From an uncultured bacterium (GTDB taxonomy: Bacteria; Babelota; Babeliae; Babelales; Vermiphilaceae): a stretch of 64,000 bases of DNA. Position numbers: made by a program. How positions within the stretch are numbered: position 1 is the first letter of the stretch; every line of letters starts with the position of its first letter. Where the stretch lies: assembly GCA_963702025.1 (NCBI GenBank), contig OY969699.1, forward strand, positions 389,746 to 453,745, written 5' to 3'. This document shows, one piece after another, positions 39,001 to 45,000 of the stretch.

Positions 39001-42000
39001 CTATTAGTATGAATACCAAGGGGTATGTATTACCTATGCCTCATGGTTAAATTGTGTTGTATTATAGGTAATTTTTATTTCCAAAAAAGGAGAATTTGTC
39101 ATGGCAAAAGCTCATAATAAAAAAGGTTTAGAAGCAGCTAAACGAAAAGCAAAATCTGCATTGAAAGCATTAAAAAAAGACATTCTGAAGCAAAGAAGCA
39201 AGGCAAAAAAAGATATTAAAGCTTTGCATGCTAAACATCATAAACATGTGAAAAAGCTTGTTGAAAAAAATAAGAATTTATTTTCTTCATGGTTTTAATC
39301 TTTTTTAGATAAAACAGAGCTTGAGTAAAAACAGTTCTATGGGATAGTGTTTATAAAAGGCACTATCCCTCCTATTTACATAATCTTTTCTAATAGAAAC
39401 TATTCAATAACTATTCAATAGAATCCTCTAAAAACACCAAGTGTTAATTGACAATTTGGTTATTTAAACTAAAATTATATTAATAATAGTATATTTTAGA
39501 TTAAATGGAGTTTTTATATGAATAGATTATCACTTCTTCTTATCCCTGCAATGATAACCACTTGCATGCAAGCCATGGAGATTCCTGAGCAAAGTACAGC
39601 TGAAAAACAAAAGATAAATCCCGTTTTACAAGCACTAATCACCAATGATTGCGCAGCGCTCCAAGCGATGGGAACCATTCTTTTGCAAGATAATGAGATT
39701 AAAGAATGGGCGCGCCATTATTATGATTCTGATTATAGTTTAGAGAAAAATGCATTTGTAGATACTCTTTTGGCCCAGAAAGACATTTTATTTGAGTGCC
39801 CGAGCTTAGTGGATTTGGCATCGCAAAAAGTTGCTCAACTTCAAAAATTTAATAATTTAGACATTTCTTGTTTGCCCCAAGATTTGAAAGAAAGATTACC
39901 TCTTCCCTATGCAAACTTTAATCTATTAAAAAATAAATGTACTGATTTAACGAAGCCCGAAGCATTTTTTATTGAAGGAGAAACGGAACTGTGTGATTCG
40001 CGCCGTGCAGATGAAATTAAAATGCTTAAAAGGATGATCGATAATTACATAGTAAAACACATCTTAATTACCGATAAAATAGCCGCTATTTTTGATGAAG
40101 TTTGCAATCAACATCGCCAAAAATTCGGCCAATTTGCGATGACCTATCACTTTCTTAGCATGCTTGTGCCAACTAATACTTTAGGTCCCATCAAGTATAG
40201 TTATATTGATTATTGCCATAGTATTGCTCGTGGTCAACTTCCTCGGGAATATTTCACTTTAAATACAGATATTATGAAAAAATTGCTTCCCAAAAAAATT
40301 GTGCCGGCACCAGTTGCAACGGCGGTATCAAAACAACAAAATTCTGGATCGTGTTCAATATTATAGATCGTTACCGGATCTTAGGGTTATTTTATGAAAC
40401 AATTTTTATGCAGTATCACTTTTTCATGCATTTTTGCTATGGCAAGTTGTGCCATGGAAAGCGTAGACCAAAAAGAAATTAAAGAAGAAAAAAAGACAAA
40501 TCCTGTTTTGCAAGCACTCATTACCAATGATTGCAAGGCGCTCAAGGCAATGAACGCAATCATTTTGCAAGATAATGAAATAGAAGAGTGGGCATACCAT
40601 TATTATAGTTCTGACTATAGTGACGAAAAAAATAAGTTGGTAGACACTGTTTTGTGTAAGGTGCCGATTATATTTGAAGTGCCATCACTGCTGGAAATTG
40701 CAGTGCAAGAAGTATCGCGCCAATTTTGGTTTAATAAGCTTGCCATCAATCATCTACCGCAAGAACTTCAATCAAGAGTGATCGGCTGCATTCCCTTATT
40801 ATCTTATAAGCTTTTAAAAAATCACTGTGCCGATTTAACTGCCGCTGAAAGCTCTTTTATTGAGGGGACAACGGATGAGTGTTACTCTCATCGATTGGAT
40901 AAGATTCAATTATTAAAAGCATGCGTAGACAAATATCTTACGGAGCGATCAATGGTGGTTGAAAAATGTAATACTATTTTTGAGAAGATTCAAAATATGA
41001 TAGTTGATCAGAAAATAAGAAATACGCAAGAAAGCGTTCAGGGAATTCCCGGTTTTATTGCCCCCGATTGGGGTGACGTTAAGAAAAGGCTTGTTCATGC
41101 GGAGCAATATATGGCTGATTTTCTTCACCCAGGAAGATCGGTAGGTTTTCCCAAAGGCGAATTGTATTTACGCATTCTTTTTAAGATTATATTACCCAAT
41201 GAAATCTCAAAACTCGTAATCAAAAGTAAAAAATAAAATAAATGGAAGTTCAAATGAATAAATTAAAATGTGTATTGCTTCTATTCAGTGCATCTTCTGC
41301 AAGTTACGCAATGAATGCTGACCGTGAAGAAGGGGCGAGCAAGAATGCAATTGAACTATCAGCAAAAATAAGTTTGCTTGAAATAAAAGATAATGGCAAA
41401 GAAAAAAAAGAAGAAGAAAATCTCATTGTTCAGATGTTAATTAACAATGATGTTCCTGGATTGCGAAGATTAAAAGGAATAGCACTCACTCAAGATTCTC
41501 TTAAAAAATGGGCAACCCATTATTATAAATGCCCAACATCGCCTTTAAAATCTGCAGCAGTTGATTGGGTTCTTTTGGAAAGTAATCTTTATTTAACGGT
41601 TCCGACATTAAAGGCATTTACGCTTCAAAAAGCTGCTGAACTTGTGCTTACCAAAAATCTAAAAATAGATAGTTTACCGCAAGATATCAAAGATATATTT
41701 TGGTCCACGGCGCCGACCTTTTCTTTTTTGAAAAATCAGATTACGGGCTTAAATTCGCATGAAATTTTTTTATTATGTAATGATATTGCAAACGATACCA
41801 TCAAAGCAGATGCGCTTGAAAAAGTGAAACGTATTTCCGCGTTGAGGGCTAATTATATACGAGATCGTGTTGACTTAATTGTCCAGATTAGTGAGCTTTT
41901 TTACAAGACATGCGATGAGAGTTACCCTGTAGGACTTTCATGTCATGAAACAACGAGCCAAACGATTTTCAAAAATTTGGGATATGATCCTGCGCCGAAC

Positions 42001-45000
42001 GTTATGAACTGTTTTGGTTATGACGCCGAAAAGAGGATTACGAATAGAATATACAATAGATTATTCCCACAAACCAATCCAAAATAAATGGAGTTTATTA
42101 TGAATATGATTTTACACTATTTTTCATTATGCTTGATTCTCAGCTTGTGGCAGGTTGCCGCAATGGAACTGCCTCCTGCTGGCGAGTTAAAATCAAAAGC
42201 ATCGATAATTGCAAAAAAATCGGTGTATGAACAAAAGAACACAATGTATAATGACATTGTGGATCTTATTAATAATAATGAAGATTTAAATGCGCTGATC
42301 TATTGCAGAAATGGGAGAACCGCTCTTGGGCATGCTGCTTTTAATAATAAATTAGAGGAAGCAGCATTATTGCTAGATCATGGTGCAGATCCTAATGCTG
42401 CCCCAACCAATGAAACTCCCCTTATTTTGGCAGTAGAAGGTGGTCATCCTGCAATGGTTAAATTGCTGACGAGCCGTGGGGCAAATCCTAATATTGGTCC
42501 CCGCTTTCCGTTGCACACTATTTGTTACTGCGTAAAAGATGTGCTTGACGCAGAGAAAATAGCAGCACGGCTTGAGATGGCGCACTGGCTTTTAGAAAAT
42601 AACGCTGATCCTGAATTAAAAGATGCCAAAGGAAATACGCCAATTTTTTATCTTTTAGAGCCCACTGATTTTACTGCCTGTTATGCTCATTGTCCGGCAG
42701 GATGTGCTGTTCATCCGGATTCAGCACGTCAGCGAGAAATCATTTTTAATCAGCGTAAAGAATTGATAGGTGAGTTTATCCATTTAATCAAATTGGAAAC
42801 AAAAAATAATCAGGGCAAAACAATAGTTGAATTTGCAACATCACCATCGGCGTACCCATTTTTAGGTGCGCACGCTAGTCAAGATGCGATGCGCAAAGAA
42901 TTGGGTGAATTTATAGAATCATTTTTTGTAACTAAGAAATTAATATGAAAATACTACCATTACTTTTGCTTTTCGTGATTATTGCCCCATGTAGTAATGC
43001 TATGGAAATGCAGGCAAAGAAAGTAAAAACAAAAGACTTTAAGATCTTACTTTGACGCTTTACTTGTTTTTTACGTACGTTTGCGCTAAAAATCAATCAT
43101 GGTTCGATACGCTGCGCTTCGCAATCACTCACCATGAACGGGGGTTTGCTATTAGCTGCAATGTTATCATCGAACCATGATAAACTAGAGAGTAGCACGT
43201 ATGAAGCAGTATGTTTTTCTTGTCTTTGTTTTTTTTAGCGCGTCAGCGCAAAATCAGATTTTTAATAATCCGGATCTGGGTAAAACACATTTTATTGTTG
43301 GGTTGCCGCCACACGAAAATAGCGTGCAAGAAGAAGTGCCAATCACGGCTAGTACCGATTTGCATGCGCGCTTAATTTGCAAAGATGGTAGTTGCATGCA
43401 TGCCTTTTTTTCTCCCGATGATGATCTTGAAGAATTATTAATTCAGCTTATTAATGCGGAGAAAATGAGTATTCAGTTGGCAGTATTTTCATTCACCGAT
43501 GGCGCGATTGCCCAAGCGCTTATTAATGCCCATCGTCGTGGCATAAAAATTGTGGTGATAACTGATATTTCCGGCGCGCGTGATAAATTCTCAAAAATCG
43601 ATTTACTCAAAAAAAATGGCATAACCGTTCTGGTCTACGATCCCCGCAATCAAACAGTGCTCAACAATATTATGCATCACAAGTTTGTGCTTTTTGAAAA
43701 AAACGTCGGGAGCAAATCATTGGTGTGGACCGGTTCCTATAATTTTACCAAATCGGCAACACGTAACAATCAAGAGAATATTGTGCTCCTGGACAGCAAG
43801 CCGTTGATTGATAAATACGCAAAACAATTCTCATTATTGCAAGAACGTACGAGAAAATTGCCGGTGAAATTTGCGCAAAGAAAAGATACGCTATCGAATT
43901 GCTTCATTACTACAATTCCTTCCTAGCTCGAGCATCATGCTATTCGCCTTTAGAAAAAAAAGCAAGTAGTTTTTATTTGTTATTGTTCAAGAATTTCTAA
44001 AAGCCTTTTAAAATCGTCAGGAATTTCTTGCGAAAAAGTATACGGTACATTCTGAAAGGTAAATGAGAGGGATGATGCATGCAATGCATGGCGGTCAATG
44101 AGTTTTGACGATGCGCCATACATAAAATCACCAACAAGTGGATGACCGATCGCGCTCAAATGAACACGAATCTGATGGGTGCGTCCGGTTAGAGGATTAA
44201 TTTGCACTAATGCATGATTGTCAAAGTAACGCAGCACGGTGTAATGAGAAAGCGCGTGGCGAGTTGATGGTTGATTGCGCTGGCGATAATGAGTTGTTAA
44301 CGCCTTTTCATCAGGAATATGAGCCATCATTTTTTTTCGATTAACCGGATGACGGCCAATCGAAAAATCGATACTACCGGTAGCTGGCGGATGGCCTTCA
44401 ACTATGGCCAGATAAGTTTTTGCAATAGTGCGCTGTTTGAACATGGCGCCAAAGGTCATGTGAGCAAAATTGGTGCGAGGGATTATTAAAAGCCCCGATG
44501 TTTCTCTATCAAGACGATGCACAATTCCCGGGCGTTCAATACTGCCCACATCAACCAGCTCGTGATGGTTGGTCAAGAGCCAATCAACAACAGTTGGTTC
44601 GGTAGTTATTGTTTCGGTTTGATGAACAAGCAATTTGGCAGGTTTGGCAATAATAAAAAAATGTTCGTGCGCATAGAGTATCTTAATGCCTAAATCAGAG
44701 TTCACTGGGTTAAAAAGAGGCCGACTTGCTTCAAGTGGAAATGAGATGATAATAGTATCAGCTGTTTTTACCTGGGCGCTCGATTTTGCCGGTTGGGCAT
44801 TAATAGTAATAGCTTTTTGTTCCAGCAGGCCTTGAAAAAAACTGCGAGAATATTCAGGGAGCGCCACTGATAAAAATTTATCAATACGCTGACCTGCTTG
44901 CGATTCTTCAACCACCAACGATACTGTTGATGAAACTGGTTTGTTAGTGCTAATCTGAGATCTCATCTCCATTTGTGCCCCATTAGGATTAAAATAGTAA

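Follow-up and report, generated by a model that had tools for sequence, protein, structure and literature searches.

A conserved helix-loop-LP motif in three tandem, predicted secreted paralogues of a Babeliales bacterium as a possible cullin-ligase adaptor box

Introduction

F-box, U-box, BTB and ankyrin modules copied from eukaryotes are known from bacteria that dwell in protists; mimics of the BC-box or SOCS-box type have so far been described for viruses, and literature searches found none from a bacterium. Whether such a mimic exists in bacteria is the question raised by three tandem genes, here called p1, p2 and p3, at positions 39518-42087 of a 64,000-nucleotide stretch of DNA (hereafter the window; contig OY969699.1, positions 389,746 to 453,745, assembly GCA_963702025.1) from an uncultured bacterium. 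An original prediction, made from the bare sequence, had read them as secreted paralogues that each carry a motif resembling a SOCS box, followed in the same transcription unit by an ankyrin-repeat gene in an arrangement echoing the eukaryotic ANK-SOCS (ASB) receptors. If this SOCS-type reading were true, the genes would encode the first bacterial ubiquitin-ligase hijackers of the SOCS-box type. If the motif docks Elongin C or Skp1, it would be a new minimal ligase-recruiting module, and if it does not, the genes form an ordinary lineage-specific family of ORFan effectors.

The window's SecA (20445-22994) is 83-86% identical to SecA of Babeliales/Dependentiae (TM6) genomes and ~50% identical to that of other phyla; the contig that carries the family genes measures 1.596 Mb. 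Dependentiae live as obligate parasites inside the cells of protists; one cultured member, Chromulinavorax destructans, has signal peptides on ~44% of its coding sequences, and the phylum has many ankyrin proteins, F-box, WD40 and leucine-rich repeat (LRR) domains, and a type II secretion system (T2SS) (PMC6561590, PMC4776705). Given this parasitic way of life, a motif directed at eukaryotes is plausible in the present organism. There is hardly any knowledge of the ways in which Dependentiae manipulate host cells, or of whether the numerous proteins with a Sec signal that they encode ever reach the host cytosol.

The reading that I favour, at a probability of about 35%, is that p1-p3 would be effectors that leave through Sec and the T2SS, are in part prenylated by the host, and use a helix-LP module to dock a cullin-ligase adaptor, either Elongin C or Skp1.

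Conservation of the motif

The three open reading frames (ORFs) were found where they had been predicted and align collinearly, p2 being 40% and p3 26% identical to p1, and the motifs quoted for them were recovered to the letter (Table 1). The pattern common to p1-p3 is P-[ST]-L-x2-[LIF]-[ATV]-x3-[VA]-x13-L-P-Q-[DE]-[LI]. An upstream block that was also said to be shared held up in part: WA.HYY occurs in all three, but NPVLQALITNDC is present in p1 and p2 only and p3 has NLIVQMLINNDV at that place.

Relatives were sought with a word-indexed search of 5.8 billion protein clusters and an exhaustive hidden Markov model (HMM) search over 1.84 billion representatives. In about 15 billion public proteins the whole family came to seven distinct sequences (p1, p2, p3, P0004, P0005, P0006 and P0007), all from Babeliales (Dependentiae/TM6), and a scan of genome contigs with the family found no further members; the family is recently expanded and restricted to this lineage. 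Only 15 columns of the seven-sequence alignment are invariant, and P95, L97, L119 and P120 of the motif are among these; the motif is the family's most conserved element. The invariance of these four residues across all seven members argues that the motif is functionally or structurally important, and it is kept in all orthologues and distant members found (P0004, P0005, P0006 and P0007). In the same alignment, conservation extends beyond the motif to WA.HYY upstream and to P130, L137 and E148 downstream. Purifying selection was stronger in the core of p2, with a ratio of nonsynonymous to synonymous substitution rates (dN/dS) of ~0.11, than in its C-terminal half (~0.35).

The predicted fit to the loose BC-box consensus holds for part of the family. 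The seven members have A, A, T, A, A, A and V at the small-residue position, such that five of the seven satisfy the consensus [STP]-L-x3-[CSA]-x3-[AILV]; p3 has the Thr that the prediction had acknowledged, but P0007 adds a Val, and the consensus alone is at chance level, since this minimal pattern is uninformative and matched 17 of the window's 65 ORFs, with 14 matches expected on shuffling. When the BC-box was required to be followed by LPxx[LIVM] within 8-20 aa, p1-p3 were the only matches among the 65 ORFs, with 0.29 expected per window.

Searching for the module in the window proteins and in 92 further loci brought up one more carrier, an ORFan encoded next to secA in a Babeliales metagenome-assembled genome (MFD06092.bin.1.94; locus L028, 3-698, minus strand). 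This predicted secreted protein reads IPSLKQLCLNYI-x18-LPTDL (...LANLPTDL) and has the canonical BC-box Cys, and its module follows directly upon the signal peptide, which would be cut between HG and MEMTIPTSQAPITRRIPSLKQLCLNYIGQN-x-LANLPTDLAIEAL. The pattern is expected 0.1 times in the 324,000 residues searched, the ORFan has no relatives in the 5.8 billion protein clusters, and its alignment to the SOCS box with hhalign gave P = 8e-3. This protein, unrelated to the family, hints at a modular box, as a single case.

CaaX endings and predicted export

CaaX endings occur in three of the seven members, namely p1 (CSIL), P0006 (CMIS) and P0007 (CILQ), the C-termini of the family being otherwise unalignable. 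Among the 65 window ORFs, p1 alone has Cys at position -4, and the background for Cys at this position is ~1.3% (non-SecA long ORFs of all loci). With Leu as its last residue, the p1 motif is of the geranylgeranyl type by the textbook rule. Because prenylation is restricted to the eukaryotic cytosol, the CaaX endings point more strongly than any other finding to action of the family within host cells; the members that carry them may well be prenylated by host transferases. By the same logic, CaaX tails on proteins with a Sec signal offer a direct test of delivery to the host cytosol. Bacterial C-terminal Cys sorting tags of the MYXO-CTERM type were considered as an explanation and rejected, since the transmembrane helix that such tags require does not follow the Cys in these proteins. 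A literature search found no paper linking CaaX or the SOCS box with Dependentiae.

A precedent is the effector AnkB of Legionella pneumophila, which combines an F-box, ankyrin repeats and a C-terminal CaaX motif, which the Paris allele has lost (PMC2916131, PMC5506055). The likeness lies in the pairing, in a bacterium of single-celled hosts (amoebae in the case of AnkB), of a host-prenylated CaaX tail with a box of the ligase-adaptor type, both of which are predictions on the side of the present family, and in the loss of the tail from some alleles of AnkB and some paralogues of the family. AnkB differs in that its F-box is recognised by Pfam, its ANK repeats are genuine and it is translocated by Dot/Icm without carrying a Sec signal. 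The members of the present family do carry such a signal; neither an F-box nor ANK is detectable in them, and they are not similar to AnkB in sequence.

Secretion of the paralogues, as originally predicted, agrees with their N-termini, which were judged by inspection and regular expressions: all three have a Sec-signal-like n- and h-region with small residues at -1 and -3 and Met next, the putative cleavage sites lying between MQA and ME in p1, SCA and ME in p2, and SYA and MN in p3. Signal peptides are retained in the orthologues, and the p1 type is also found in L004_a, the orthologue of p2 in a relative. The Sec system would export p1-p3 and signal peptidase would cut ahead of the conserved Met; type II secretion machinery, of which ATPase and pseudopilin genes lie within the same window, may then free the proteins toward the host.

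A predicted signal-peptide cleavage pattern of [A/G/S/C/P] followed by Met-[E/D/N/K/Q] was seen in about a third of the window ORFs. It occurs within aa 14-40 in 19 of 61 ORFs, with four and one occurrences in the next two segments of equal size, and in 6 of 24, 6 of 22 and 2 of 13 ORFs of the related Babeliales loci L004, L009 and L011; examples are 9600-10586(-), 11875-13317(+), 34585-35274(-), 42088-42948(+) and 60857-61513(+). The predicted mature N-termini are Met-Glu, Met-Asp or Met-Asn, and the codons are mostly ATGGAA, which argues against a ribosome-binding-site effect. The pattern may serve as a sorting or cleavage motif peculiar to this lineage, may reflect dual start sites, or may mimic eukaryotic N-termini of the NatB type and so evade host N-degron recognition.

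Likeness to SOCS box, F-box and Vif

A SOCS-box profile, built from 12 sequences and with ASB9 included, was validated before use: it recovered SOCS1-4, ASB7/8/9, SPSB3, PCMTD1 and Gustavus from the PDB and 29 proteins from a protein database, 27 of which are annotated as PF07525. Aligning the 57-column motif alignment to this profile with hhalign gave P = 7e-4 (probability 26%), and P = 2e-4 (46%) with an enlarged profile, while P was 4e-3 (8.5%) for the 138-column core and 9e-3 (4.5%) at full length. The top local match always lay at the motif and in the predicted register, and in a column-shuffle control one of 500 shuffles attained the observed score. Enlarging the profile with 28 database SOCS boxes added little diversity and brought no consistent improvement. 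An F-box profile, validated as well and able to recover Legionella AnkB itself (5k35_A), aligned with P = 0.9-1.7e-3 and a probability of 5-23% over ~20 confident columns, placing LPQ[DE]L on LPxE. The sequence comparisons are weakly positive and lean towards some cullin-adaptor box, of the SOCS type or the F-box type alike.

The BC-box of HIV-1 Vif (SLQYLA...PPLP) has Ala at the small-residue position, as do SLVDLA, SLLEIA and SLQELA of the family, and in both cases a proline-containing element follows and the protein belongs to a pathogen rather than being a host receptor. There is no homology between the two, and the Vif box acts together with a zinc-binding HCCH motif and CBF-beta; nothing comparable was seen in the family.

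The sole weak Pfam match of the family was DUF5638 for P0007 aa 63-127 (locus L011, 8001-8855; the core from WA.HYY to LP), with E = 0.033 and 15 bits. It was taken as noise because the other six members have no such match and no literature on DUF5638 was found.

In an AlphaFold2 model of full-length p1 (five-sequence alignment), a helix at 97-111 covers the BC-like segment and is followed by a loop, an LP-capped helix at 121-126, helices at 134-140 and 146-153, and long helices at 164-239. When the core model was compared with the PDB using Foldseek, 15 weak matches (E = 3-10) included four Cul2/Cul5 receptors: ASB8-EloBC, ASB11, FEM1B and KLHDC2-EloBC. Their presence is suggestive, though matches at this level are statistically unusable. 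An ankyrin-like N-terminus, suspected from the helix-turn-helix pattern and the ASB and FEM1B matches, was discarded after an ANK HMM gave no signal.

Weighing the readings

According to the favoured reading, the amphipathic helix-loop-LP module (p1 aa 95-150) would dock the BTB-fold adaptor of a cullin-RING ligase, tentatively Elongin C in the manner of a BC/SOCS box or Skp1 in that of an F-box. The CaaX members would be prenylated in the host cytosol and thereby anchored to membranes, as has been shown for Legionella analogues, and the divergent helical C-terminal half may select targets or mediate assembly. A more specific version, which I consider unlikely, has the module as a Dependentiae-specific BC-box/SOCS-box, either convergent or highly diverged, that recruits host Elongin B/C-cullin ligases, in proteins delivered by Sec and the T2SS with an ancestral prenyl anchor. 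The points that follow concern the broader, favoured reading.

In favour of this reading count the conserved signal peptides, the CaaX endings, the invariant motif residues and stronger selection on the core, the in-register profile matches, the four Cul2/Cul5 receptors in the Foldseek list, the L028 protein, and the presence in the window of further ligase-type modules with signal peptides, namely two Skp1_POZ-LRR proteins and a WD40-like protein.

Several results weigh against it. Pfam gave no match to SOCS_box, F-box, F-box-like or PRANC for full proteins, motif segments or relatives, even at E<=10, NCBIfam returned nothing relevant for the family proteins, and PDB sequence searches with four family profiles yielded noise only (RRM, Syo1, eL20 and 6ney; E >= 0.27). 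Run without filters, the validated SOCS HMM scored the family members at ~0 bits (-0.5 to 1.8), below random window ORFs. The hhalign probabilities for the SOCS box are only 4-46%, and the P values overstate the support because the sequence had been seen before the hypothesis was chosen. The F-box profile fits LPQ[DE]L equally well as the SOCS profile does, and with two box profiles so alike in score, a Leu-rich helix with an LP turn could just be a common pattern. The SOCS hallmarks Cys-Arg and LPxP are absent, the family having L-[A/T/V]-[S/V/L/I/A] and L-P-[Q/V]-[D/E] in their place (C, R, L and P are each at least 90% conserved in a reference set of 40 true SOCS boxes), and the conserved Trp of the F-box is likewise not present in the family. 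The motif is not C-terminal: in p1 (282 aa) it spans aa 95-127, with ~150 residues of helices after it. The structure models are of low confidence, with a predicted local distance difference test (pLDDT) score of 66 and a predicted template modelling (pTM) score of 0.60 for full-length p1, and a mean pLDDT of 65.9 and a pTM of 0.37 for the isolated core (seven sequences), which was poorer than the full-length model in the motif region; Foldseek gave no match with E < 0.08 for the full-length model against the PDB or for the core model against the PDB and a viral library. Finally, p2, p3, P0004 and P0005 (four of the seven members) lack a CaaX ending, and Dependentiae are not known to have a route that leads out of the periplasm into the cytosol of the host.

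Nearly as likely as adaptor docking is that the resemblance arose by chance, the helix-loop-LP element being the hydrophobic core of a novel all-alpha domain in secreted, partly prenylated effectors with targets other than cullin ligases, such as membranes, GTPases or the cytoskeleton. That every curated profile search was negative, that the SOCS HMM scored ~0 bits, that the minimal BC-box consensus occurs in 26% of ORFs by chance and that F-box and SOCS profiles score equally all speak for it. So does the extent of conservation (P130, L137, E148 and WA.HYY), which runs well past the 40 aa of a SOCS box and fits one globular domain, and the more confident motif region in the full-length AlphaFold model suggests that the motif packs on the C-terminal helices. 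Chance accounts less readily for three observations: both box profiles place their best local match on the motif and in register (P ~1e-3; 1 of 500 in the shuffle control), EloBC-binding receptors are enriched in the weak Foldseek list, and a version of the motif with the canonical Cys occurs in a second, unrelated Babeliales protein.

It seems rather improbable that the module is a true mimic of the SOCS box, with BC-box and Cul5-box, which would recruit host Elongin B/C with Cul5 or Cul2 and form a split ASB-type receptor together with the downstream ankyrin protein. Its likeness to the SOCS boxes of PF07525 (SOCS, ASB, SPSB) consists of a predicted helix bearing P-S-L-x-x-L-small-x3-[VI], a loop about as long and an L-P that opens the next helix, with the best profile-profile match in register. 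At the level of residues, S-L-x-x-L-[A] resembles the SLQHLC of SOCS and LPQDLKERL is close to the LPEDLKQFL of ASB9, and the consensus fit in five of seven members, the hhalign probability of up to 46% (P = 2e-4) and the ASB8-EloBC and KLHDC2-EloBC matches in the weak Foldseek list point the same way. Nevertheless, the Pfam SOCS_box model finds nothing, the nearly invariant Cys-Arg is replaced by A, T or V and a non-basic residue, with T and V occurring at the small-residue position, LPxP lacks its second Pro, and the motif is internal with ~150 residues after it and conservation that runs 25-30 residues further than in a SOCS box. The profile comparison places its best match, a weak one, in the predicted register (P = 2e-4 to 9e-3), and Pfam, the SOCS HMM, Cys-Arg, LPxP and the C-terminal position do not agree with a SOCS box; the SOCS-box identity is partly supported as a module that may work like one, though the membership tests that were run came out against it.

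The split of ANK-SOCS logic across genes, also part of the original prediction, did not survive. None of the orthologous loci (L003, L004-L008 and L011) has an ankyrin gene downstream, and in the syntenic ones a phospholipase D (PLD)-like gene directly follows one or two family genes; as the ankyrin gene occurs downstream only in the strain of the window, the ASB-type arrangement is not conserved, and the family's own N-terminus has no ANK signal with the ANK HMM. The adjacency to an ankyrin gene itself carries little weight because such genes are so common in the phylum.

Of comparably low probability is an F-box- or PRANC-like module, in which LPQ[DE][LI] would open helix 1 of an F-box whose partner is Skp1 of the host or the Skp1_POZ-LRR proteins that the bacterium itself secretes (9600-11618), in an architecture like that of AnkB. 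Compared with the F-box (PF00646/PF12937) and the PRANC domain of poxviruses and Rickettsiales, L-P-x-[DE]-[LI], the hydrophobic positions of helix 1, the following Pro and a later Cys/Leu align with LPxE...P...VCxxW (hhalign P = 0.9-1.7e-3), the family Cys falling on the F-box VC in a greedy alignment, and conservation continues for ~30 residues beyond LP, as an F-box requires. The profile used is one that recovers AnkB (5k35_A), and F-box domains have already been reported in TM6 genomes (PMC4776705). However, the Pfam F-box, F-box-like and PRANC models remain unmatched, the conserved Trp is absent, only ~20 columns align confidently at a probability of 5-23%, and an F-box leaves the invariant P95-x-L97 helix upstream unexplained.

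The proteins invoked in that reading are encoded by tandem paralogues at 9600-10586(-) and 10620-11618(-), each with a signal peptide, Skp1_POZ and LRR_8 repeats. Their Skp1_POZ matches are borderline, with E = 5.5e-4 for the first, whose score falls just short of the Pfam cutoff, and 2.8e-5 for the second, whose score just exceeds it. The pair resembles an adaptor fold of the Skp1/Elongin C type joined directly to substrate-binding LRRs and could comprise partners or functional parallels of the p1-p3 family; in a PDB search LRR matches dominated and did not discriminate Skp1 from Elongin C.

Least probable is that the proteins are not directed at the host but are periplasmic or outer-envelope proteins with incidental C-terminal Cys motifs. 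For it speak their Sec signal peptides, the fact that no dedicated effector translocon was identified, and the envelope and pilus genes (pseudopilin, penicillin-binding protein) that adjoin in conserved synteny; it is countered by the quality of the CaaX motifs and their recurrence in three of seven members, by fast evolution and a copy number of 1, 2 or 3, typical of host-interaction genes, and by eukaryote-like secreted neighbours (ANK, C2H2 zinc finger, WD40-like, Skp1_POZ-LRR).

Gene organisation and distribution

The features of the cluster are collected in Table 1. The gaps between p1, p2, p3 and the ankyrin gene are 27, 5 and 0 nt, p1 has a GGAG ribosome-binding site 8 nt before its ATG, and a scan of the cluster from p1 to the ankyrin gene found no terminator-like site. 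The hairpin upstream is the likely boundary of the transcription unit, and with this hairpin and a promoter-like site flanking the cluster start and no terminator-like site within, a single unit of p1-p3 and the ankyrin gene is plausible. The prediction that the ankyrin gene shares this unit is borne out as far as its position directly next to p3 goes; the co-transcription itself is deduced from the promoter-like site and hairpin. One gene caller starts p2 at M21, giving a version without signal peptide (P0002), and p3 has an additional acidic/basic low-complexity insert after its signal peptide.

Table 1. Coordinates of the paralogues, their sequence elements and flanking features within the window.
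Feature	Start	End	Strand	Description
Terminator-like hairpin	39341	39369	+	12-bp stem with 5 GC pairs and T-rich tail; consensus match only; 3' of the small basic-protein gene
Best sigma-70-like promoter match	39448	39475	+	TTGACA-16-TAAAAT, 11/12; 43 nt upstream of p1
Paralogue p1	39518	40366	+	282 aa; signal peptide, N-terminal core aa 34-150, long helices aa 164-239, C-terminal CaaX
Sec-type signal peptide of p1 (heuristic)	39518	39574	+	aa 1-19, MNRLSLLLIPAMITTCMQA, then MEIPEQ; n-region R, hydrophobic h-region, A-x-A-like site
Motif of p1	39800	39898	+	aa 95-127, PSLVDLASQKVAQLQKFNNLDISCLPQDLKERL; PSLVDLASQKV-x13-LPQDLKERL; P95, L97, L119 and P120 invariant in the family
CaaX-type motif of p1	40352	40363	+	CSIL; C-terminal; X = L
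Paralogue p2	40394	41236	+	280 aa; without CaaX; basic tail IKSKK at the end
Motif of p2	40682	40780	+	aa 97-129, PSLLEIAVQEVSRQFWFNKLAINHLPQELQSRV; PSLLEIAVQEV-x13-LPQELQSRV
Paralogue p3	41242	42087	+	281 aa; likely true start 41254 (M5), GGAGG site upstream of M5
Motif of p3	41602	41700	+	aa 121-153, PTLKAFTLQKAAELVLTKNLKIDSLPQDIKDIF; PTLKAFTLQKA-x13-LPQDIKDIF; Thr at the BC-box C/S/A position
Ankyrin-repeat gene with signal peptide	42088	42948	+	abuts p3; likely start 42100 behind a GGAG ribosome-binding site
Secreted PLD-like (PLDc_2) gene	43201	43926	+	conserved downstream neighbour in the four syntenic loci examined (window, L003, L004, L011)

The order of genes in relatives is penicillin-binding protein, pseudopilin, (ankyrin gene on the minus strand, small basic protein), family gene or genes, PLD-like, RluD and MgtE. 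In L011 the family is represented by P0007 alone, next to PLD; two copies (L004_a and L004_b) occur in the peat-bog relative and three in the window. The second paralogue of the window, p2, is the orthologue of L004_a/P0004 (71% identity, dN/dS 0.24), and p3 that of L004_b/P0005 (49%, dN/dS 0.44); these ratios indicate purifying selection on the genes. P0006 (L009) lies in a different gene context with no PLD neighbour. The adjacency of family and PLD genes may be mere conserved gene order; in L011, where only 57 nt separate PLD from P0007, their co-transcription is possible.

Neighbouring genes

A secreted WD40-like beta-propeller protein with weak Pfam matches is encoded at 32614-34092(-), and its N-terminus IPSCAELAANVVSKL is vaguely like the family helix. 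Scored as a candidate for the same module, this N-terminus (IPSCAELAANVV) reached 4 bits only, without the invariant Leu and LP, and was rejected. The gene is adjoined by one for a secreted C2H2 zinc-finger protein (34585-35274, minus strand), and both are kept in the relative L004.

Just upstream of the cluster, 39101-39298(+) encodes an extremely basic, Lys-rich protein of 65 aa without family assignment, which is followed by the hairpin and is kept in the relative (L004 8526-8729, 67 aa).

The ORFs 3211-4029(-), 14516-15670(+) and those starting at 41242 and 42088 have an apparent start of the form M/V/L-E-[VF]-x-M, in which the first codon together with the GAG after it serves as ribosome-binding site (AAATGGAGTT), translation beginning at the Met that lies four codons on. 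Since the apparent starts overlap the ribosome-binding site, mechanical ORF calls in this genome are often four codons too long.

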